From sequence record MW650886.1: a stretch of 64,000 nt of DNA. One strand, written 5' to 3'. Each line of letters begins with the position of its first letter. Within the stretch, counting starts at the first letter, position 1. The position numbers and the translations under genes are program-made. Below, one piece after another: positions 619 through 39,926 of the stretch. The notes below the pieces were generated by a model. It was given only the letters and a program-made list of their open reading frames with translations. It had not been told where the DNA came from and did no database searches. The DNA comes from Escherichia phage vB_EcoM-ZQ1.

Positions 619-691
619 GATGTAATTCCTCATAATGTAGTTGGTGCGTTTCACTTTTCATTCGGCGGTGTGTTGCCGCCCTATGTGAACT

Positions 692-720
692 ATAATAGTG
701 CATCATTATTGAAGAGTAAA
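692..720 (-). promoter_or_regulatory. T4-type early promoter (-35 TTTACT, -10 TATTAT)
   Basis: minus-strand TTTACT - 17 bp - TATTAT upstream of gene 130..618. Confidence 0.45.
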
Positions 721-767
721 GTCTTTTTCAATAATTTTTAAAAATTATTTTTGAAGTATTTTAAAAG

Positions 768-788
768 GCCTCGTCGAATGAGGCCTGG
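768..788 (-). terminator. stem-loop terminator
   Basis: aggcctc-gtcgaat-gaggcct hairpin followed by U-rich tract on minus strand. Confidence 0.45.
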
Positions 789-3121: not shown

Positions 3122-6100
3122 TCAGATCTTAATCTGCATGTTGCCACCCAGGGACTGCTCGTACTCGCTGTATGCGCCTTCCCCGTAGTCTCGTGCCCAC
3201 TGGTCAGACTGCTGGGCGCTATCCAGAGTCATCAGGTTTGGTTCAGTCGGGTTGTAACCCTTGGACTTCGCATCCCGGTACAGAGTCTGCAGGTACTGGT
3301 TGGCGCGGTCAATCTGAGCTTTGAACTCGCGATATGCCCCTTCAGTTGTGTTGCGGCGGAAGGTGATATCCCAGTCCACGTTCAGAGTCTGACCATCACG
3401 GCTTGCATAGATCTGCCAATCCAGGTCGCGGCCTTTTGGTGCGTTGTCGCGGATGGAGTCGGCGTATGCCGCAAGGTCGTCCTTCGGATTGTGCGACGTG
3501 CTTTTCAGAAGTAGTGCATGACCCATACCACCGTTTGGCTCAAGAGACCATTTTCCTGTTTCTCTTCCCAGGCGTTCTATGTTGTTGAGTTGGTTTATCG
3601 ACAATTCAGAAGAGTCAAATAATACCACATCACGTTTTTTGGGGGTTCTCACATAAGGGGTGAGATCAATGTCGATCATCCGGTTTATAAATTCTACCAC
3701 TTCAGCTTGTTTCTTTGGCAATGTGGTATTGATATCCGGCTTGTTTGCCACTTTCTCTAGGCGTTTATTTTCTGCGCTTATCATGGACAGCATAATTTGT
3801 GTAACTTTGCCGTCAGACAAGTTGTAATCATTCCAAATCACTTCACCTTTATCCGTGATGGTTATATCGTTCAAGAACACCTGGTTTGGGTTGTATGACT
3901 GACTTTTCAACTGTTGGAGGTTTCTGGAAAGATATACCATTTTTGATGAAATCTCATCAATCACACTCTGGACCATATCTTTGTTTAAAGGAAGTTCATA
4001 TGTCTTCGGATTGTTCAGGGTACGCCCTTTCTGAGAGACAATTGGGGTGAATGCAACTTTACCTTTGTCGTAGTAATAGGTCACGTTGGTTATCATAGAA
4101 GTACCGGCGTATTTTCCCGTTTCGGGGAAATTGACATCCCACCGAATGGACATGCCGTTGACAGTCTCACCAAACACCATGGCGTTGCTTGGTATCTTCA
4201 GGGTTCCAGAGTTGACCAGATCAGCGCCTTGGGCATTCAGGTCGATAGAACCATAGATAGCCCCGGTAATACGATCTTTCAACATCAGGGTCTTGTCGCC
4301 CTTCTCTGGGATGATTTCCAGCGGGTGCTTGCCACGCGGAGGTTCTTTGATGAGTTCCAGTAGAGCAGTTTTCCCTGGTTTCACACGATTCAGGACAGCG
4401 TCGGACACTGTCAGAGTCCAGTTTGCGGTTTCCACATAACCCCAGCCCCGAGAACGGCGAATGGCTTTGATAGGATATGGAGCGCTTGTTGGCACTGCGC
4501 TAATTTCCCATTTGCCAGTGTACTGGGTCTTGGCAACCTCAAAGATGGACGCAATTACTGCATTGGCGACGTCACGGGCGCTACCTTTGGCCACGTTCTC
4601 CTCTTCAGCAATTTCGCTGAAAACTGAGTATTGAACGAAACCAGCGAGGACGTTTGTGAAGTTGACAACGATAACCAACCCGCCTGCTGTCGTGTAACGA
4701 CCAGCGCCCACACGACGGATGTTTTCACCAGGAAGAATAGAAGTGTCCAACCCAACGTTGGTATCAATGATACCCAGAACACGAGCGATGAAACCACTGT
4801 CACGTAATTGATCAACACTGGTTGCACCCTCGGTCGAATCCGATGCGGATTTAGACACTTTGTTCAACTTGATAGAGACAAGGGTTTCCCCGTTGACACC
4901 GATGATATCCCATTCAGTACCCTGCTCGTTCGAGGTGCGGGCAATCTTGCGCTTTGAATTGATGGCACCTTCGTAACGCCCGTTCTTGACCACAACAGAG
5001 GCAGTAGCAGCATCAGTCGCACTTGCTGCATTTGAAAAGTCTGGGTCAGAAATACTGATGTCGACGTCACCGTTTTGAGAACGCATGCGAACACCGTTTT
5101 TGAATCGTTCAACGTTTACTTCTCGAGCACCAAGTCGTTTGGCATCAATAACAGCAGTTCCAGAACCGATAATGTTGGCTGGGTTATTTCTGTCTGAACT
5201 GTTTTGAGAACCTTTCCAAAATTTTGTAGACGCCATGGTGAAATCATTCAGGATATTGATAGGGACTTGCGGTAATTTCAACTGACGAGCAATGAAATCA
5301 GCACTTTGCCCACGCACAGGTTTCTCATTCATGTATGCGCCAACATACACGCCCGGCTCATTGTAGTGGGGAGCGATATTTGCCGTGTTCGTGCGGCCTC
5401 TCTCCTTACCAGCCCATAACAACATGGGCTGATCCCCGTTTGAAGTTAATTTCCATCCGTTGCCATTGCTGGTGTCATTGCTGGTGTCATTGCTGGTGTC
5501 AACGTCCACCACCAGAATTATCTGAGCACCTTTCTTGAAAGTGTACTGATCGTACATACCTTTCTTCTGTTTGGTCATGGACGCACCGACCAAGTCTTGG
5601 TTGGTGAAGCCGCGCTTCATATTCCAAGATACCTCAGTCCCGTCTGGATATTTGTCAAAATCATAACCATAGAATGTGGCTACTTCTTTCGAACCGCTTA
5701 TCAGACGGACGTAATTTCCACGAATCGGGTCTCGCCCGCTCTTCAACTCCAGACCAGTGTCCGAGCTGTTGTACCACTCGCGGTTGACTTCTATTTCAGA
5801 AGAACCAGCCCCAACTCCCACATCCGGAGTATTGTTCTGAACCGGAACGTCACCGACTTTGTCTGGATCATCCCAGGTGATACCCTGCATCTTCGGACCG
5901 TCGAATACCTGAGCCGGATCTTTACCCTTACGAACTAGCCACACATAACCACGGTCAGGAACAGGCGCGTAGGTCAGGTCCATGACGTTCAGTTTCTGCT
6001 TCAGGCCGGACTGGCGGATGATCTTAGGAATCAGGGTCATACCGCGATCCAGCGCTTTCTTAGAGAAGTTGACAGCAAAGCCATCGATGGTCTTACCCAG

Positions 6101-19215: not shown

Positions 19216-19898
19216 TCGTTCTCCTTCATCATATTGTCGCAGTCAACACGAGTCTGCTGGAGTTCGCGCGACATGCGGGGATCATCAAGGTTCACGCTCA
19301 GATTCGTGGCCAGGTCTTTCAGACCGTTCTGAACCCTGTCTTCAAAGTAATAATCGTTCTCAACCAGCCAGGCTCTGAGACCAAGAGCGCGGGTGCGCCA
19401 TTCCTTCTTCAGGACGCGATCAGAGGTCTGCGTAGCGCTGTATTCGAATACTTTGACGCACTGGTTGCCATCGTTGATGAGGTTCAGGTGGCGGCGACCA
19501 ACCTGCACACCCTTCTGTAATGCCGGAGAAGGGAGCGAACGGCACTGTCTTACGGTCATTCGGCCTTGGGTGCCCATTCGGCCAGTCATGATTAAATCGC
19601 CAGCCTCCATGCCTCCACGGTTAAATTCGTCGTCATTGAGGTAGCCCTTGAGGTTATAGGCTCCCTGTTTGTAACGGTTGAACTCAATTCCGGCATTGAC
19701 GACAGCAGTGGAGACGTTGCCTGTGTTCCAGAGTTCAGCGAAGTTCTCTATGGAACCAGACTTGTCGATGGCAACCGCCTGGGAGAACCCAGCACAATAG
19801 GAAAGGTCGGACCACAGTTTATCACCTGTGGAGTTCAGCTTGGCAGCGGCGGGTAATGCCAGACCAGCCAGCACAACCCCGAGGATTAAACGTTTCAT
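19212..19898 (-). CDS. secreted protein (228 aa)
   Basis: internal ATG 19898 with AAGGAG RBS; signal peptide MKRLILGVVLAGLALPAAA. Confidence 0.5.
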   Translation of the reverse strand: MKRLILGVVLAGLALPAAAKLNSTGDKLWSDLSYCAGFSQAVAIDKSGSIENFAELWNTGNVSTAVVNAGIEFNRYKQGAYNLKGYLNDDEFNRGGMEAGDLIMTGRMGTQGRMTVRQCRSLPSPALQKGVQVGRRHLNLINDGNQCVKVFEYSATQTSDRVLKKEWRTRALGLRAWLVENDYYFEDRVQNGLKDLATNLSVNLDDPRMSRELQQTRVDCDNMMKENE

Positions 19899-19926
19899 GG
19901 CGATTCTCCTTATTTCATTGGATGAA

Positions 19927-19955
19927 ATGATAGGCGGCTCACCATGATGAGTAAA
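19927..19955 (-). promoter_or_regulatory. T4-type early promoter (-35 TTTACT, -10 TATCAT)
   Basis: TTTACT - 17 bp - TATCAT upstream of gene 19212..19898. Confidence 0.4.
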
Positions 19956-19977
19956 GGGATTCAATAAACTATCGTAT

Positions 19978-20427
19978 TCAGAAACGGGTATCGCTGACCG
20001 TTCTGTATCGCACACCCTGAAACTGTTTAGCGAGTCTAACAAATTCCATCGCTGGTAAATCAACTTTGTAGACCTTCATGCGCTGTTTGCCGTCCATGTT
20101 CAACGCAGCGACAAATCGGTGAGAACCGTCAACAACGTAATTGTCAGAAGACACCCAAACTCGACCCATAGGTTTCTTATTTCTGATCTGCTTCATAATC
20201 TTCCAGACCTTCATTTTATTGATTTCGTTCTGGGTAAGACGAAGCATTTTGATGGGCACTTGCGCAGCATCTATGGACACGCCGTTGTCTTCAAGATATT
20301 TGTGAAAATCTTCTTGTTTGTCGGCATCGATTTGCGGCATAGAAGAACGAGAAAGCCCGAGGTTCCCAACAGGGATCCTCAGGCCGTTAATGATGTTCAA
20401 CCAGTCAATAAAGGATGTAAGGAACAT
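19978..20427 (-). CDS. ParB/sulfiredoxin-like nuclease domain protein
   Basis: VVDGSHRFVAA motif (ParB-N DGxHR). Confidence 0.5.
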   Translation of the reverse strand: MFLTSFIDWLNIINGLRIPVGNLGLSRSSMPQIDADKQEDFHKYLEDNGVSIDAAQVPIKMLRLTQNEINKMKVWKIMKQIRNKKPMGRVWVSSDNYVVDGSHRFVAALNMDGKQRMKVYKVDLPAMEFVRLAKQFQGVRYRTVSDTRF

Positions 20428-20459
20428 GACACACCTCGGGATATAGGGTTATCCCTTAG

Positions 20460-20651
20460 TTAGCGCATCCATCGATCCTTTCTCTCTTTCTCCTTGCGTT
20501 CGCGACGTTTCTGGTCGGATCGGAATAACCAATAGAAGAAGTTCCCACCCAAGATGAAAACCACCGCGATTATTACTAGGACACCCTTCACAATTTCCCA
20601 AACCAATTCTTTATCCAAATTATACCTCGTCTTCTTCAGGTCCACCGTCAA
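20460..20651 (-). CDS. small membrane protein (63 aa)
   Basis: one hydrophobic helix followed by basic tail. Confidence 0.35.
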   Translation of the reverse strand: MTVDLKKTRYNLDKELVWEIVKGVLVIIAVVFILGGNFFYWLFRSDQKRRERKEKERKDRWMR

Positions 20652-20907
20652 TCAGGATACGAGCGGTGTCGAAAGTTTCCCCGCCCGTGTTCAGCAGCTT
20701 GGTTAGATCATCAAGAGTACCGACAGGGCCAAGATCAGATGACCGCGATATAAACTCCAGCATGCCATACAACGCTGTTTGGAATCGGCTGTTGTCGATA
20801 TCGTTCTTTATTACCATCAGGCGCAAGATGTTCTCTGACTGAGTATGGCCAACACACGCCTTGTCTCTGATCATCTCCTTGATAGAACTTCTCTCTGATG
20901 GTGTCAT
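20620..20907 (-). CDS. hypothetical protein (95 aa)
   Basis: ORF. Confidence 0.4.
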   Translation of the reverse strand: MTPSERSSIKEMIRDKACVGHTQSENILRLMVIKNDIDNSRFQTALYGMLEFISRSSDLGPVGTLDDLTKLLNTGGETFDTARILIDGGPEEDEV

Positions 20908-21278
20908 AACGTACCCCCGACAGAGATCAAGAACTCTTCTTGCATGGTCTTGACCGGGTGGTGGTTGCGGGTTTCGAACATGAAGCCCCAGCCACCGTCG
21001 GCGACGTTACCAAAGGTCTTGACACCAAAGGACTTCGTCCCGTTGGAGCAGGAATAGATGTCCAGGACGTATGGGCTACCCTGATTGTCGATCCCACGAT
21101 TCACGTCGTCTGATACACAGCGCTCAATCATCTTCCCGTTCTTATACAGAACGAGGTCTTGACCATACGCCTTGAAAGCATAAACACCGTTGGTAGACAC
21201 TCCGGTGATGACAGGAGGGGCGGAAACAGCAGCAAAGGAAGCGCCTAGCAGGGCAACAGCGAGGATTAACTTTTTCAT
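20904..21278 (-). CDS. secreted protein (124 aa)
   Basis: conserved leader ...GACTATATC-ATG; signal peptide MKKLILAVALLGASFAAVSA. Confidence 0.5.
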   Translation of the reverse strand: MKKLILAVALLGASFAAVSAPPVITGVSTNGVYAFKAYGQDLVLYKNGKMIERCVSDDVNRGIDNQGSPYVLDIYSCSNGTKSFGVKTFGNVADGGWGFMFETRNHHPVKTMQEEFLISVGGTL

Positions 21279-21302
21279 GATATAGTCTCTTGGTTTCAAA
21301 TG

Positions 21303-21324
21303 GGCGGGGTATGATTACCCCGCC
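21303..21324 (-). terminator. stem-loop terminator (repeat copy)
   Basis: ggcggggta-tgat-taccccgcc hairpin; near-identical copy at 21863. Confidence 0.45.
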
Positions 21325-21330
21325 GTGGGT

Positions 21331-21837
21331 TTATAGGGTAACAAGTGATACGGTAAAAACCATCGTCCCGTCTGTTGCCATTTTTCTTGAAACTGGTATG
21401 ACGCGAGGCTGGCAGAATATCCATTCTTTCTCCATGGACGCCAAGTCCAGCATATCCATTTCTGATTCATCGCCTTTGTTCACAAATTTTTCTAGAGAAC
21501 CATAGACATTAAGCCCCTCCGGGAGTCTGTTTCGATGTTTGTAACAAATGCGGGCAACAGCTTTGGTTCCGTACGATTTAGAAAATTTTTTGGCCACATG
21601 CTTCAGTTCACTGAAGCTAAGACAAGAATCCCATGTCTGGAACATGTCGCCTCGTTCAAACATCATCTCTAAACGCGCAACGTCCTCTTTAGGCAGCCCG
21701 CGATAAAGTGTGGTCGTCTGTGGTTCGCGCAATTCTTGCACCAGATCACGGACGGCAGGGGAAACAGTACCGGGGCGCATGATGTGGGACTTATCATGGA
21801 CGAGGTAAAATAAATCTTGAATTTGTTGATCAGTCAT
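21331..21837 (-). CDS. hypothetical protein (168 aa)
   Basis: conserved leader ...GGAACTATATC-ATG. Confidence 0.5.
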   Translation of the reverse strand: MTDQQIQDLFYLVHDKSHIMRPGTVSPAVRDLVQELREPQTTTLYRGLPKEDVARLEMMFERGDMFQTWDSCLSFSELKHVAKKFSKSYGTKAVARICYKHRNRLPEGLNVYGSLEKFVNKGDESEMDMLDLASMEKEWIFCQPRVIPVSRKMATDGTMVFTVSLVTL

Positions 21838-21862
21838 GATATAGTTCCTGCATTTCAAATAG

Positions 21863-21884
21863 ACGGGGTAATCATACCCCGCCC
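21863..21884 (-). terminator. stem-loop terminator (repeat copy)
   Basis: cggggta-atca-taccccg hairpin. Confidence 0.45.
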
Positions 21885-21896
21885 AAAGTTATAGAA

Positions 21897-22136
21897 TTAG
21901 CTGATATGCTTCAGAAGAGCGAAGAGGATCACGGCCTTGGCCTTTACCTTTCCTACGATGCCTGTCTCGACATCAACTTCTTCAGCAACCCACTCTTTTC
22001 CCTTCTTGCTGATGATAACGTCACGACGCTGTGCGTAGACTTCTTTGGTCGCATACACACGACGGAACCCTTTAGCGCGGAGCAATCCCCAATTGCGATC
22101 AATCTCTACTGAAGTTTCGACCATTTTGTTCTTCAT
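21897..22136 (-). CDS. hypothetical protein (79 aa)
   Basis: ORF with upstream early promoter. Confidence 0.45.
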   Translation of the reverse strand: MKNKMVETSVEIDRNWGLLRAKGFRRVYATKEVYAQRRDVIISKKGKEWVAEEVDVETGIVGKVKAKAVILFALLKHIS

Positions 22137-22187
22137 GATATAATCTTACCTTTCAACCCGGTGAACCCATCGTTCGCCAGTTATTGA

Positions 22188-22216
22188 ATAATAGGACATT
22201 CCTTAGAGGAAGTAAA
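22188..22216 (-). promoter_or_regulatory. T4-type early promoter (-35 GTTTAC, -10 TATTAT)
   Basis: GGTTTACTT - 17 bp - TATTAT. Confidence 0.5.
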
Positions 22217-22228
22217 CCCCTAAAAGTA

Positions 22229-22254
22229 AAAATCCCCAACGTTTGTTGGGGATT
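22229..22254 (-). terminator. stem-loop terminator (42-bp repeat copy 1)
   Basis: aaatccccaac-gttt-gttggggattt hairpin. Confidence 0.5.
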
Positions 22255-22269
22255 TAATAAAAGTTATGC

Positions 22270-22494
22270 CTATTTAATTTCTCGGCTTGAATTTTCTAGT
22301 TCTAATTTTCTTATAGCAGAAATTCTGCCTTCATCAGTTGCGGGAAACTCCCAAACAGCACGACGCCCGTTGTTGGTATCACAACTTGCCAGCCAGCAGA
22401 AATTAGAGGGGTCCTTAAACAAGACCAATTTAGGGTTAGCAATATTGTTCAGGCAAAATGGGGTGAGGTCAACAACACATGATATAGCAGACAT
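22270..22494 (-). CDS. hypothetical protein (74 aa)
   Basis: ORF flanked by 42-bp perfect direct repeats; start ambiguous between 22494 and 22479. Confidence 0.4.
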   Translation of the reverse strand: MSAISCVVDLTPFCLNNIANPKLVLFKDPSNFCWLASCDTNNGRRAVWEFPATDEGRISAIRKLELENSSREIK

Positions 22495-22543
22495 AATATA
22501 TACCTTCTTTCAATGAACGGGAACGCCCCGCTCTATGAATTCA

Positions 22544-22572
22544 ATAATACGCATTTACATTATAGAAGTAAA
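22544..22572 (-). promoter_or_regulatory. T4-type early promoter (-35 GTTTAC, -10 TATTAT)
   Basis: GGTTTACTT - 17 bp - TATTAT. Confidence 0.5.
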
Positions 22573-22584
22573 CCCCTAAAAGTA

Positions 22585-22610
22585 AAAATCCCCAACGTTT
22601 GTTGGGGACT
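22585..22610 (-). terminator. stem-loop terminator (42-bp repeat copy 2)
   Basis: ccccaac-gttt-gttgggg hairpin. Confidence 0.5.
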
Positions 22611-22614
22611 TCTG

Positions 22615-22938
22615 TTATTTGCGCAGGGCAACCACGAGTTCAGCGAGTTCACCCATGGTCGGGTCATCGCCTTTACTACCCAGCCAACCGTCGTCGATTT
22701 CGACCTGAAACTCTTCTTCTAGTTCCATTACGATTTCGATGGCATCCAGTTCGTCACCACCGAGGTCTTTCTTGGTACGGAGGCCAGCCAGCTTGTCCAG
22801 GGCGTCCTCGTTCTGAGATGCCACGTCGTCCAGCAATTTGCGCTTGTCATCGTCACGCCACAGATCCATATTCAGATTGTCAGTGGCGTACTGAGCCAGA
22901 TGACGCATGACTTCAACATATGTTGGTTTACTGCTCAT
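22615..22938 (-). CDS. acyl carrier protein homolog with Ser to Glu at the phosphopantetheine site
   Basis: DLGGDELDAIEIVMELEEEFQVEIDD aligns to E. coli ACP [27 protein letters not shown]; DSL replaced by DEL. Confidence 0.6.
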   Translation of the reverse strand: MSSKPTYVEVMRHLAQYATDNLNMDLWRDDDKRKLLDDVASQNEDALDKLAGLRTKKDLGGDELDAIEIVMELEEEFQVEIDDGWLGSKGDDPTMGELAELVVALRK

Positions 22939-22979
22939 GTTATTACTCCAAAGAAAGGCGGGTTGCCCCGCCCGTTGGA

Positions 22980-25181
22980 TTAGATTTTGATTTCTTTCTC
23001 TGTCAGTTCGGCAGTGACCTTGTACTTCACGCCATCCACTTCAACTTCCATGGTGGACTCTTCCAGGTCGAGATCGGTGAACCAGCCATGGCCAGCAACG
23101 ATACCATAAACCACTTTAGACAGCGTCTTGTTCAGGGCACGGACTTCGGTGATGGCCGCCTTGGCAGCAGCGTCGATCCAGTTTTCGATCAGCTGTTTCT
23201 GTAAGGCTTCAGGCACGGCAGTGATCATAGGAGACTTCACGAATGCTTCGTACTCCTTCAGCGCATTGGCGATGAACAAGTCACCAGCATTGAGTTTCTT
23301 GTTCTCGGCAATCTTCTTCTGTACCGCTGCGATAGACGGTAGAGATGAAGCGCCAGCGATCTTCACGTTCAGCTCACGGCTCATGTAGAAGTCGGTAGAC
23401 TCTTTGGTCTCAGTCTTCGGTGAGAATCCGTAATCGCGGATGCCGTAGGAGGACAGGAACTCGGCCGCCTCAGCGCCGTACTGTACTGCCAGGCCTTTGG
23501 CGTTACCCTTACCAACCAGGGCGTCTCGATAGAACTTCAGCACCTTCTGCTTGCCTTTCAGGGCTTCCAGACGGACATTATCCGCAAAGAACTGAGCAGC
23601 ACTGATGTTCTTGACCATGGCGCGGTTGACCAGCGGTACGCTTTCCAGGTTCAGGACAAACACTTCCGGACCACCAAACACGTGGACGCCCATTTCGATC
23701 AGCTTCTGTACAACTTCGATATCAGCCTTGAACGGTAGAGTCTTCACGTTAATGATACCGTCTTTGACGATGGTGTAGTTGCGCCACTGGAAAGTATCCA
23801 GTTCTTCAGGCAGGCCAAACTTCTTCTGTGCGAATTCAGGCACAGCCACAGTACCGTGTTGAATTGTACGCACGCTGATGTTCGGGCGCTCGGAGTTATA
23901 GACCAAATCGCTGATTGGCACAACACCCAGGTCGTTGGTAGGTTCGAACGTCGGGTTCCACTCTTCGTGTTCTGCCAGCTTGAGAGCCAGGGCTTTACGC
24001 TCTTCTTTGGACTGAGCATTCGCGATCTGTTCTGCCAGCTTGTCTTCGGTGTCGTCGGTTTTCTGCACAGTACCGCGCCCGATGCTCTTATAGGAGAACA
24101 TCGGATGCTTGGTAGCAACAGGCACACCAGCTTCAGCCAGGTACGTCAGCACGTCAACGACGGTCGTCGCATCTTCAGCCGGAACCAGGTCATAGTCAAT
24201 ACCGTCAACGCCGCGCAGCTGGTCATCAACGATGGCCTGGGTCAGATCGTTCTTGATGTTGGAGTAGTCCTGCTTGGTGAAGCAGTTGCTGTACTGTTTG
24301 ATGAAGCGAACGTCGCCCGTCTTCTTCAGCGCAGCCCAAACCAGATCTGCGTCCATAGTGTGTACGCCGTAGAACGCCAGCACATATGCCGCCTGGATGT
24401 CCGTCAGGCTATCCATCTGGTCGATCATGTTGGGGTTTACAACCCACAGCTTGGTGACGCTCTCAGGGATGCTCACGTGGCCGATAGGATGGTCTTCATC
24501 CGGCTGTACCGCCAGCACAGTTGCTACGCCGTTTTCAACATAGATGGCGTGGGTGTATAGCAGAGGCACATCAACAACCACCTTCGGCACTGATGACTTC
24601 AGCACGTTTTCCAGTTCGGTCTGGTATTCGGTCTGACCTTCGGCAAACACGTGAGTTGCGCCAGAGCGCTCGGACATCTGCGCCAGCAGTTCACGGTTAC
24701 AGTGCCAGCCGTATTCGATGAAAGTAATGTTATCGAACGCGGAAGGAAGTTTTTCGGCGGTATCCAGGATTTCATTGGAGTGCCAGCAGTTGTCATAACC
24801 ATCGGTCATGAATGCCAGGTTGTTGACGTAGCCAGGTTTCTTCAGGTCACGCGCAGTATCCATCGCCAGTTTCAAAGGCTCAACAAAGCCAGTACATCCG
24901 GACGGTTGCAGGAAGCGATCGATCAGTTTGTTCAGCTCGCTCAGGTCAGACGCAGCACTAACCTGGCGGCCAGCGAACACAGTACCAAAGTCTCCTTTGG
25001 AGGAGAAATACAGAACGCTCACAGTGTCTTCCGGTTTCACCAGGGAAGGCAGGTTCTCCTTCAGATGCTTACGGACTTCAGGGAGCGCACGGTACATAGA
25101 GCCGGAAATGTCTACAACGATTACATGGTTGGACGGAGCAGCAGTCGCAACCGCATTCTTAAATTCTAATGATTCAATCAT
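22980..25181 (-). CDS. von Willebrand factor A (vWA) domain protein (~733 aa)
   Basis: MIDAS motif VIVVDISGSM near N-terminus; start at internal ATG 25181 with GAAGAAGG RBS. Confidence 0.6.
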   Translation of the reverse strand: MIESLEFKNAVATAAPSNHVIVVDISGSMYRALPEVRKHLKENLPSLVKPEDTVSVLYFSSKGDFGTVFAGRQVSAASDLSELNKLIDRFLQPSGCTGFVEPLKLAMDTARDLKKPGYVNNLAFMTDGYDNCWHSNEILDTAEKLPSAFDNITFIEYGWHCNRELLAQMSERSGATHVFAEGQTEYQTELENVLKSSVPKVVVDVPLLYTHAIYVENGVATVLAVQPDEDHPIGHVSIPESVTKLWVVNPNMIDQMDSLTDIQAAYVLAFYGVHTMDADLVWAALKKTGDVRFIKQYSNCFTKQDYSNIKNDLTQAIVDDQLRGVDGIDYDLVPAEDATTVVDVLTYLAEAGVPVATKHPMFSYKSIGRGTVQKTDDTEDKLAEQIANAQSKEERKALALKLAEHEEWNPTFEPTNDLGVVPISDLVYNSERPNISVRTIQHGTVAVPEFAQKKFGLPEELDTFQWRNYTIVKDGIINVKTLPFKADIEVVQKLIEMGVHVFGGPEVFVLNLESVPLVNRAMVKNISAAQFFADNVRLEALKGKQKVLKFYRDALVGKGNAKGLAVQYGAEAAEFLSSYGIRDYGFSPKTETKESTDFYMSRELNVKIAGASSLPSIAAVQKKIAENKKLNAGDLFIANALKEYEAFVKSPMITAVPEALQKQLIENWIDAAAKAAITEVRALNKTLSKVVYGIVAGHGWFTDLDLEESTMEVEVDGVKYKVTAELTEKEIKI

Positions 25182-25344
25182 CGTTATTGCCTTCTTCAGG
25201 GTTGTCTTCGGCCTCACCTTCCGGCTTGGCCAGCATATATTCAAGGAAGTCGCGATTGAGTTCAATCTGACTCATCAGCGTTTCGCTCGGTTTAAAGCTG
25301 AGGTCGATGGTGTCTAGACCAGCTTTCTTGAATGGTTCTGTCAT
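25174..25344 (-). CDS. small acidic protein (56 aa), not in ORF track
   Basis: ORF whose stop overlaps vWA start (ATGATTGA). Confidence 0.3.
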   Translation of the reverse strand: MTEPFKKAGLDTIDLSFKPSETLMSQIELNRDFLEYMLAKPEGEAEDNPEEGNNDD

Positions 25345-25437
25345 GGTTAGTCGACCTTCACTTCAGTAACACCAGGTATTTCACGGACATGGGCCAGGCC
25401 TCTGTTTGTTAGTCATGGCGTATTATACTGCGAAGGG

Positions 25438-25683
25438 TTAATTGAAACGCCCAGCATTTACGCTGGACGTTATTGATATTGAAAAGGTTTTGACAAACTC
25501 AGGATTTGGAGGAAGCACCCTTCCATGTCTGCCGTCGCCATGGGCATGGCAACCGACACGGGCATCACATGGAGTGCACACCCAGAACTTCAGATTGCGG
25601 AGGTCAGGGCGATGAGGGTAGAGAACATCACCACCGACGAATTCGGCTGGGAGGCCACAGTAATCACATATAACAGGTTTCAT
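25438..25683 (-). CDS. zinc-ribbon protein
   Basis: CDYCG ... CTPCDARVGCH Cys/His cluster. Confidence 0.45.
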   Translation of the reverse strand: MKPVICDYCGLPAEFVGGDVLYPHRPDLRNLKFWVCTPCDARVGCHAHGDGRHGRVLPPNPEFVKTFSISITSSVNAGRFN

Positions 25684-25743
25684 ATTCTTTGTCCAAAAGA
25701 AACCCCGCACATGGCGGGGTTGCTCAGGCCGAGGCCAACAGGG

Positions 25744-28292: not shown

Positions 28293-29513
28293 TTATTCAG
28301 GTTTCTTCAAACGGTCCAGCAAATTGACGGAACCACGTTTGAGCACGACTTCATCACAGCGCTTTTTGTATTCCCCACCGCCGTCATATCCAACCTTCCC
28401 GCGCGGTTTTTTACCTTGCTGTATGGCCTCTACACAACGAGTATATTTCGACAATTCACAAAAGTGGTTTTCTAATTGTTGAACATTCATACACTGATCC
28501 CAAGGCTCTTCCGCAGACCAAAATTCTTCCCTGTTATACCCAAGAGGGCCATAAACCGCGTCCTGATTGTCCCGCAACCAGAAGATGCATTCTTCATGCG
28601 TCATGCCATCTTTGTCCTGGAACATCAGGTCGATCCCTGCGCGACAGCCTGGTCCAGCAACCGTGAAGTGGTTCTCACTGAAAGGATATTCAGGAATGTA
28701 AGTGAAGTCAACCCATATCTGATAGGCCAGGAATGGGCCAAGCCCTTCGATGTCGTCATACATGCGCTGGTATACTTCCAAAGGAGTACCAAGGCGCAGC
28801 AGGTCATGGAAATAATTTGGATACTTGTTGACGAATGCCTTCAGGGAGCGGATGACACGCATTGGCATGTACGGTTCCCAACCTTCGATGGTGTAGAAGT
28901 CCGGCTCTGCTTCGGCTATCGCCTTGGCTTCTTTATAATCCATGTTCTGGGTTGAACCGTCTTTACAGATCAGATTCACCATCATCCCACCGAAGCGCTG
29001 CTCCTTGTGGTTGACAACCATCTCAGGGAAAGCCAGGCATTGCTTCAGGCCGCCCGTGTTGAAGGCATTGGTGAATACCTTACCACCGTCGGCCTCGAAC
29101 TTCTGAAGTCGTTCGCGGGTTGCATCGAGGTTGATCTCGGCGAATTCTTTGATCGTCATCGCGCCGCCGATAGCCTGGATTGGATCCCAGAGGTTGAACA
29201 TGCGGAACAACACGCAGTTGAACATCTTGTCGGCCATACCCAGAGCATCATTCTTGGCGATGTTGTTGATCAGGTTGAGAGACTGCCTGTCGTGCTCTCT
29301 CCGGACGTTACAGAATTTAACCTGGCGTAGTATGGGATTATCAGTCCAAGGAGCAGGAAGGCGCTGGACGTCCTTCTTGACGTGGATCTGATAACGATCG
29401 CGCATCCATTCGTAAGACAGGCGGGTATGGGTCGGGCTGAGAACCGGTTTGGCCGACTTTATCTTTTCTTCACGGACACCGCAGTACGGGACGTCCAGGG
29501 CTTTATCTTTCAT
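28293..29513 (-). CDS. hypothetical protein (406 aa)
   Basis: long ORF; family not recognised by eye. Confidence 0.55.
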   Translation of the reverse strand: MKDKALDVPYCGVREEKIKSAKPVLSPTHTRLSYEWMRDRYQIHVKKDVQRLPAPWTDNPILRQVKFCNVRREHDRQSLNLINNIAKNDALGMADKMFNCVLFRMFNLWDPIQAIGGAMTIKEFAEINLDATRERLQKFEADGGKVFTNAFNTGGLKQCLAFPEMVVNHKEQRFGGMMVNLICKDGSTQNMDYKEAKAIAEAEPDFYTIEGWEPYMPMRVIRSLKAFVNKYPNYFHDLLRLGTPLEVYQRMYDDIEGLGPFLAYQIWVDFTYIPEYPFSENHFTVAGPGCRAGIDLMFQDKDGMTHEECIFWLRDNQDAVYGPLGYNREEFWSAEEPWDQCMNVQQLENHFCELSKYTRCVEAIQQGKKPRGKVGYDGGGEYKKRCDEVVLKRGSVNLLDRLKKPE

Positions 29514-39644: not shown

Positions 39645-39926
39645 TTAGAACAAATGCTCGCCTTCCACATGGTATGCTAACACGCCGTCAGAACATTCAA
39701 AATACATGTTATCATATTCCCACAGAGCGGTGATTTCTTCACCCTGGCAAACCACCGAAAACTTCGGCTGGCTGGCCTTAACTGGAAATTTTTCAGGGGA
39801 AGAGATTGGGGTGAATTTGGCATTTCTGACGGCCATACCAACAAATTGCTGCAATGTTACTTTGTAACGAGAGTGGGTGATAGTGCCAGCATTCAGGGCT
39901 TCGATCAATTGCGCTTTAGTTGTCAT
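39645..39926 (-). CDS. hypothetical early protein (93 aa)
   Basis: conserved leader ...GGAACTATATC-ATG and early promoter. Confidence 0.5.
   Translation of the reverse strand: MTTKAQLIEALNAGTITHSRYKVTLQQFVGMAVRNAKFTPISSPEKFPVKASQPKFSVVCQGEEITALWEYDNMYFECSDGVLAYHVEGEHLF

Follow-up and report, generated by a model that had tools for sequence, protein, structure and literature searches.

In the 64,000-nucleotide stretch of the Escherichia phage vB_EcoM-ZQ1 genome analysed here (record MW650886.1; hereafter the window), a small gene encoding a 74-amino-acid (aa) protein lies between an acyl-carrier-protein (ACP)-like gene and a gene for a 79-aa protein, and a copy of the same direct repeat stands on either side of it. 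Nearly all genes of the window are on the minus strand, so the repeat must be read on that strand, where the order is ACP-like gene, predicted terminator-promoter, 74-aa gene, predicted terminator-promoter and 79-aa gene (Table 1). A preliminary description had reported perfect 42-bp repeats, at 22211-22252 and 22567-22608, bracketing the 74-aa open reading frame (ORF). Self-comparison of the window bore this out and extended the exact identity by 2 nt, to 44 nt. The 42-nt string occurs exactly twice on the plus strand, with no match expected from 100 dinucleotide-preserving shuffles even when 3 mismatches are allowed. The two copies are spaced by 356 nt and belong to a wider similarity of 84% over 73 nt (22183-22255 versus 22539-22611).

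The preliminary description had also traced twin plus-strand shadow ORFs to the repeats. Both ORFs (22184..22516 and 22513..22722) indeed contain SKPLKVKIPNVCWG, because both read through the repeat; the shared peptide lies near their N-termini and not, as had been described, at their start. Antisense to real genes, the two ORFs are spurious.

Table 1. Features of the repeat-bounded unit and its flanking genes (window coordinates)
Feature	Position	Strand	Details
ACP-like gene, upstream neighbour	22615..22938	minus	PF00550, phrog_4154; stop codon 6 nt before the upstream hairpin
Upstream 44-nt repeat copy	22565..22608	minus	hairpin 22608-22589, T-tract TTTTTACTTTT 22588-22578, −35 TTTACT 22572-22567
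Upstream −10 TATTAT	22544..22549	minus	17 nt after TTTACT; type A spacer; fits the consensus of the PST/T4 promoter-early stem-loop (PeSL)
5′ untranslated region (UTR) hairpin of the 74-aa gene	22509..22539	minus	GAGCGGG-GCGTT-CCCGTTC plus UUCA/UGAA extension, then Shine-Dalgarno GAAGG; −14.5 kcal/mol
74-aa accessory gene, cargo of the 356-bp unit	22270..22494	minus	phrog_22629, function unknown
Downstream 44-nt repeat copy	22209..22252	minus	hairpin 22252-22233 (extendable to 22255-22230), T-tract, −35 TTTACT 22216-22211
Downstream −10 TATTAT	22188..22193	minus	type B spacer; orthologous hexamers of LIMEstone1 annotated as putative early promoter
5′ UTR hairpin of the 79-aa gene	22153..22187	minus	−13.2 kcal/mol
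79-aa gene, downstream neighbour	21897..22136	minus	phrog_804, function unknown
Presence/absence unit, 356 bp	22253..22608	minus	one cassette copy, 5′ UTR and 74-aa gene; register arbitrary within the repeat

Each copy consists, in order, of a hairpin (TCCCCAAC-AAAC-GTTGGGGA), a T-tract (TTTTTACTTTT), AGGGG, a −35 hexamer TTTACT, a 17-nt spacer and a −10 hexamer TATTAT, the promoter-like elements running from 22572 to 22544 and from 22216 to 22188 with the T-rich tract upstream. The hairpin has an 8-bp stem (11-13 bp with flanking pairs) with five G-C pairs and a 4-nt loop, and its computed energy ranges from −12.9 kcal/mol for the 8-bp stem to −18.5 kcal/mol with the flanks. The perfect repeat spans the hairpin, the T-tract and the −35; the −10 lies outside it, yet is identical in both copies. 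The spacers differ, type A (TCTATAATGTAAATGCG) being found upstream and type B (TCCTCTAAGGAATGTCC) downstream. After each −10 comes a gene-specific 5′ UTR, with its own hairpin first and a Shine-Dalgarno sequence at the end.

This anatomy combines the sequence features of an intrinsic terminator (a G+C-rich stem, a short loop and an immediate T-tract) with those of a T4-type early sigma70 promoter (−35 TTTACT, 17-nt spacer, −10 TATTAT, AT-rich sequence upstream). In the Dickeya phage LIMEstone1, the orthologous single cassette was annotated by its authors as a factor-independent terminator and a putative early promoter with hexamers GTTTAC and TATTAT, the LIMEstone1 promoters having been predicted through similarity to T4 promoters (PMC3296691). 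The earlier view of the repeat as a promoter −35 plus a terminator hairpin, and of the pair as a duplicated regulatory cassette, agrees with these observations, with the −10 added outside the perfect repeat and a full predicted terminator-promoter recognised at both copies. Our literature search, which was incomplete, found no Ackermannviridae transcriptome, and an Rfam scan of 19500-24000 at E≤1 returned no known RNA family.

Two observations support the view that the hairpin is under selection: relatives carry a compensatory stem variant (TCCCCAATA...TATTGGGGA), and TTTTACTTTTAGGGGTTTACT is nearly invariant even where the 74-aa gene is ~30% diverged. Among relatives, the terminator loops (22589-22608 and 22233-22252) are found in both orientations with unchanged stems (AAAC/GTTT, or AAACC/GGTTT in a 5-nt variant), and the loop of another 5′ UTR hairpin, at 21301-21322, reads ATCA in the window and TGAT in the 98%-identical phage AV101. 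Template switching or inversion within perfect palindromes would leave such loop flips.

Hairpins also recur at predicted mRNA starts. A stable hairpin lies within ~10-15 nt downstream of three of the window's four TTTAC-N18-TATNAT matches (hairpins at 22509-22539, 22153-22187 and 664-680, all minus strand), and phages Magnus and 241 keep a hairpin of different sequence at the same 5′ UTR position. These hairpins may be 5′-terminal mRNA stabilisers or processing sites. The same layout in unrelated sequence is found at 664-786 (minus strand), where AGGCCTC...GAGGCCT plus TTTT precedes a long AT-rich stretch, CTTTACT-N17-TATTAT and a 5′ UTR hairpin GGCGG...CCGCC.

Alleles and distribution among related phages

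The preliminary description had proposed that the repeats make the enclosed gene a ready substrate for deletion or duplication, with the 356-bp unit to be looked for in related genomes. Consistent with the first part of this proposal, phages AV101 and A221 lack exactly 356 bp, namely the gene plus one repeat, while their flanks are 96-99% identical to the window. They keep a single chimeric cassette, in which the upstream context (CAGAAGTCCCC...) is joined to the type B spacer and the 5′ UTR of the 79-aa gene. For the second part, no allele with a tandem-duplicated unit (three cassettes) was found among GenBank phages or in IMG/VR, where only presence and absence alleles occur.

Cassette sequences from 16 phages form an allelic series. 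Among filled sites (spacers given as upstream/downstream), the A/B arrangement of the window recurs in SW16-7, pSal-SNUABM-02 and pertopsoe; SJ3 and KE31 are A/A, with a repeat of ~70 nt; Det7 is B-like/B-like; and CECAV_050 is B-like/A, the reverse of the window, its upstream B-like spacer ending in GTCC. Empty sites carry either spacer B (AV101, A221, LIMEstone1) or spacer A, placed before the 5′ UTR of the 79-aa gene (CBA120, Marshall). The simplest reading of the two empty-site junction classes is that they arose separately, through crossovers at different points. The conversion tract of SJ3 stops a few nt beyond the −10, between TATTATTGAAT and AACTGG. Repeated crossing-over or gene conversion between cassettes would yield both the two junction classes and the homogenisation of the copies over variable lengths.

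A 3-kb query around the locus matched 208 phage records, essentially all of them Ackermannviridae. The closest relatives of the window are the Agtrevirus-like phages A221, AV101 and fGh-Ecl02 (97-98% identity); Aglimvirinae/Agtrevirus are nearest, and Kuttervirus, Limestonevirus and Taipeivirus more distant. The cassette is present in 165 records, in single copy in every gene-less record examined and in two copies in every examined gene carrier that bears it. The 74-aa gene itself is found in 31 of the 208 records. Twelve carrier records from Aglimvirinae, Kuttervirus and Taipeivirus were examined, 11 of them with usable flanks, and each has the gene between the ACP-like and 79-aa genes. A scan of IMG/VR added one further contig with two copies, again spaced by 356 nt. 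Only 5 nt separate the 74-aa and 79-aa genes in the Taipeivirus Magnus, which has no downstream cassette.

The idea of a dispersed repeat family was rejected, since a search of the 64-kb window that tolerated up to 3 mismatches found the cassette core only twice. When the cassette was compared by BLAST with every retrieved locus, no further locus emerged, with one copy in 50 kb of AV101, and the extra places returned by database searches reflect the palindromic hairpin matching on both strands. The other intergenic early-promoter regions of the window have the general layout and the hexamers in common with the cassette, not 44 identical nucleotides.

The enclosed ORF is conserved: 44 columns are invariant across nine protein sequences, and nucleotide differences among relatives fall mostly at third codon positions. 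Thus, the 74-aa ORF is a real gene under purifying selection. Because Magnus lacks the downstream cassette and the divergence of the gene roughly follows clades, we favour a history in which the downstream cassette appeared beside an ancestral 74-aa gene in the line that gave rise to Kuttervirus and Aglimvirinae, and the gene was then lost repeatedly through recombination between the copies and occasionally re-acquired from carriers.

Probable recombination between the cassettes, and rival explanations

How is the unit lost or exchanged? Most probably, the 74-aa gene is precisely removed or swapped by recombination between the two copies of a duplicated cassette made of a terminator and a T4-type early promoter. 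The upstream copy would stop the transcript of the ACP-like gene and restart transcription for the 74-aa gene; the downstream copy would stop the 74-aa transcript and restart transcription for the 79-aa gene, with both promoters read by host sigma70. With a stop/restart signal on both sides, the 74-aa gene would thus form an insulated, self-sufficient transcription unit. Its deletion would be precise because the copies match exactly over 44 nt (in some relatives over as much as ~70 nt) at a spacing of just 356 nt. Since T4-type recombination needs less than 50 bp of homology (Singer et al. 1982, cited in PMC2839356), the event could plausibly proceed by homologous recombination, by single-strand annealing or by copy-choice slippage, each acting via T4-like recombination and replication machinery of the phage; homologues of gp46, UvsW and UvsY were mapped in the window from the AV101 annotation. 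Deletion would leave one functional chimeric cassette, and the reverse exchange with a co-infecting carrier would restore the gene. Because each cassette is a complete predicted terminator-promoter, the 79-aa gene would keep a functional promoter after the deletion, and with a complete cassette left behind both states would be viable and common.

Several points weigh against this proposal. Promoter and terminator activity is predicted from consensus matches and from another group's in-silico annotation, and promoter-consensus scans gave no enrichment over shuffles in the cassette region. The cassette is locus-specific, with two copies at most, unlike the dispersed PeSLs of phage RB49 discussed below. 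When the window was compared with 50 kb of AV101, four simple insertions extra in AV101 (replacements left aside) had no exact flanking repeat of at least 10 nt; repeat-bounded indels were therefore dropped as a general rule, and the mechanism appears local. The data would fit either direction, loss or gain, for each event. Finally, SW16-7 shows only 2 differences from the window across 22087-22680, with flanks 91-93% identical, which shows a recent exchange of a patch that contains the unit. This near-identical patch runs 70-125 nt past the repeats, which places its crossovers in the neighbouring genes, via ordinary flanking homology and not via the cassettes.

Could presence and absence be explained by such flanking exchange throughout, the copies being alike only through common function and no crossover ever falling inside the repeats? 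Besides the SW16-7 patch, the heavy mosaicism of the region across genera is in keeping with this idea. We nevertheless consider it improbable: common function has left other early-promoter regions of the window matching in hexamers only, the chimeric junctions of empty sites lie inside the repeat and in two registers, copies in one genome have been homogenised to varying extents, and a first loss would still require an event between the repeats. A more active form of movement, in which a circle of one cassette plus the gene integrates at a resident single cassette, is possible but on balance unlikely. Filled sites would then be gains, and a hairpin-targeting enzyme might help. Integration into type B and type A empty sites predicts the A/B arrangement of the window and the A/A arrangement of SJ3 and KE31, respectively; the unit is 95% identical between the window and SJ3 where the adjacent ACP-like gene is only 66-67% identical; and loops in both orientations indicate that the palindrome itself rearranges. 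Mini-circles, moreover, were found by inverse polymerase chain reaction for the PeSLs of RB49 and phi1 (PMC2839356). In the records examined, however, the 74-aa gene is found at one locus only, and its position in Magnus, next to the 79-aa gene and with no downstream cassette, together with a divergence that roughly tracks clades, argues for old, vertical inheritance; the unit encodes no recombinase, and a circle is hypothetical here.

Direct repeats around a small, patchily distributed insert could also be target-site duplications or terminal repeats of a transposon-like or homing element. We give this very little weight, since a repeat of 44-70 nt far exceeds a typical target-site duplication and exists as a functional-looking single copy at empty sites, the insert carries neither a transposase nor a homing endonuclease nor inverted terminal repeats, its sole ORF being the 74-aa one, and it is at one locus in every record examined. 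The preliminary description had named assembly duplication as the scenario that would undo its reading, and related records do begin or end at the cassette, so assemblers do break there. Mis-assembly as the source of the second copy and the enclosed segment nevertheless has a negligible probability: the two copies and the conserved 74-aa ORF recur in 31 records from different laboratories and hosts, at 0-30% divergence that is mostly at third positions, and the flanks of the two copies differ, with distinct spacers and 5′ UTRs.

Recombination between the cassettes could be helped by the palindromes. In this rather doubtful extension, the hairpin would be an active recombination hotspot, where extrusion of a cruciform or hairpin followed by cleavage or template switching starts the exchange and yields both excision, possibly of a re-entering circle, and loop inversions; the loop flips that recur among relatives are a hint in this direction. 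If so, the early-gene cassettes of Ackermannviridae would be an enzyme-free, integron-like shuffling system and would carry the PeSL idea beyond T4-like phages.

The enclosed gene and variation around the locus

The 74-aa protein matches no Pfam family, and a database of 5.8 billion proteins yielded only 3 clusters homologous to it. Its confident AlphaFold model shows four strands followed by a C-terminal helix (predicted local distance difference test score 87.5). Foldseek found no significant match to this model in the PDB; a relationship to Pur-alpha, the best hit, was not retained as evidence (E=0.28). Among viral models (BFVD), only the protein's own ortholog matched. From its position and promoter, we would guess that the product is an early accessory or host-takeover protein.

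The neighbourhood of the gene is strongly mosaic. The 79-aa gene, both intergenic regions and the 74-aa gene are 91-95% identical to their counterparts in the Kuttervirus SJ3, and the ACP-like gene is ~66% identical. The drop, from ~94% to ~66% at 22600-22624, is a sharp mosaic breakpoint on the upstream hairpin and speaks for recombination at the cassette. The ACP-like gene falls into two allele groups relative to the window, at ~67% identity (SJ3, SenASZ3, CBA120, Magnus) and at 82-99% (the other phages in which it was found). These groups cut across genus boundaries, and pertopsoe and Marshall, classed as Kuttervirus, are Agtrevirus-like over the whole region.

Several Kuttervirus-related records start or end within or beside the cassette (NC_049439.1, MN871504.1, MZ375358.1, OL964738.1 and OL964747.1). 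Phages with records beginning or ending there are SenASZ3, SeTs-2, SenALZ1 and selz, and the SenASZ3 record begins exactly at AGTAAACCCC. Assemblers may break at the repeat, or the sequenced stocks may have mixed filled and empty alleles. A 111-kb record labelled 'Enterococcus phage Efm 3-10' (OR844942.1) carries the Ackermannviridae cassette at 93% identity, probably through mislabelling or contamination.

A second precise presence/absence unit, of 559 bp, adjoins the first. It carries a 168-aa gene (21331-21837, minus strand) annotated in relatives as an RNA polymerase ADP-ribosylase (phrog_832) and is bounded by a 50-nt, 78%-identical repeat (21275-21324 and 21834-21883) that comprises a GC-rich hairpin, a Shine-Dalgarno sequence and ATGA. 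These 559 bp are exactly what A221 and SW16-7 lack; both keep one chimeric element with its crossover in ATTTGAAA. In LIMEstone1, denV occupies this slot.

Further indels or replacements relative to AV101 lie at 2077-2238, 2719-2756, 3478-3937, 5462-5814, 28300-28381 and 39655-39922, and the AV101-only stretches include ~0.7 kb and ~1.2 kb of small hypothetical genes. At 25185-25526, the window lacks ~3.4 kb of AV101 that encode a nicotinamide phosphoribosyltransferase (NAMPT), a ribose-phosphate pyrophosphokinase and three small genes. A tblastn search of the 64-kb window found neither of the two enzymes, and this deletion has no flanking repeat. Of the adjoining 136-aa gene, only the first 53 codons are left, inside the ORF 25438-25710. 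SW16-7 and pertopsoe also carry the NAMPT gene beside this locus.

Relation to known systems

The closest parallel is with the PeSL cassettes of T4-type phages, reported for RB49/phi1, PST/T4 and nt-1/KVP40 (Arbiol et al. 2010, PMC2839356; Comeau et al. 2014, PMC4122927). PeSLs are composites of a stem-loop and an early promoter that flank small ORFs, vary between close relatives and leave a chimeric single element at the empty site (PMC2839356; PMC4122927); promoter and terminator function of PeSLs was verified experimentally with reporters (PMC2839356). Like the cassette here, PeSLs are intergenic and place a stem-loop immediately before an AT-rich stretch, which is followed by a sigma70-type early promoter and then by a Shine-Dalgarno sequence and ATG. 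The cassette of the window, with TTTACT-N17-TATTAT, likewise fits the PST/T4 consensus TTTACW-N17-TAYWAT given in PMC4122927, and its stem-loop stands just upstream of the promoter as in PST.

Tandem copies around a small gene of unknown function, variation between close relatives and one chimeric element at the empty site are further features in common. The differences are that (i) the phage belongs to Ackermannviridae and not to the T4-like Straboviridae/Tevenvirinae; (ii) the cassette is confined to one locus, with one or two copies per genome, where PeSLs are dispersed through hyperplastic regions; (iii) activity and mini-circles are experimental findings for PeSLs, whereas the present cassette is known from its sequence; and (iv) the four simple AV101-extra insertions of the window are not repeat-bounded. 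By this comparison, the cassette pair appears to work like a PeSL pair, and use of the PeSL name hinges on whether dispersal and T4-like ancestry are taken as defining.

Deletions between short direct repeats were described in T4 (Singer et al. 1982, as cited in PMC2839356; Albertini et al. 1982, as cited in PMC4122927). Judging from these citing papers, direct repeats of tens of bp likewise suffice there; unlike the natural alleles described here, those deletions were laboratory-selected and involved arbitrary repeats. In the present case, a phage with T4-like recombination genes carries the repeat as a predicted regulatory cassette, and the deletion product would still be correctly regulated.

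Other comparisons are looser. Morons of lambdoid phages, described by Juhala, Hendrix and colleagues, are genes, each having a promoter and a terminator of its own, inserted between two conserved genes. Their expression is typically from a prophage, and they are not known to have direct repeats of the regulatory element at their borders, whereas the 74-aa gene is a predicted early gene of a lytic phage and its duplicated promoter-terminator would itself be the recombination substrate. Integron gene cassettes consist of an ORF and a palindromic attC, form a circular intermediate and are handled by the IntI integrase. The 356-bp unit resembles them as a small single-gene block with a hairpin-forming element that is gained and lost at a fixed site; it differs in having no evident integrase or attI and in carrying its own predicted promoter and terminator, and its junctions fit homology-driven rather than site-specific exchange.

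A 2024 review of Ackermannviridae does not mention promoters or terminators, and an incomplete literature search, and hence weak evidence, found nothing linking PeSLs to this family. The process is of a known kind, apparently not previously pointed out in Ackermannviridae. These phages are widely used for biocontrol and phage engineering; their stocks probably hold deletion variants at the locus, where assemblers tend to break, and the cassette would offer a natural, transcriptionally insulated site at which genes can be added or removed without disturbing their neighbours. The natural allele series (filled A/B, A/A and B-like/B-like; empty A and B) may serve as a record of crossover points for studies of short-homology recombination. 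The shuffling of accessory genes through promoter-terminator cassettes, so far described for T4-type phages, probably also acts in Ackermannviridae.

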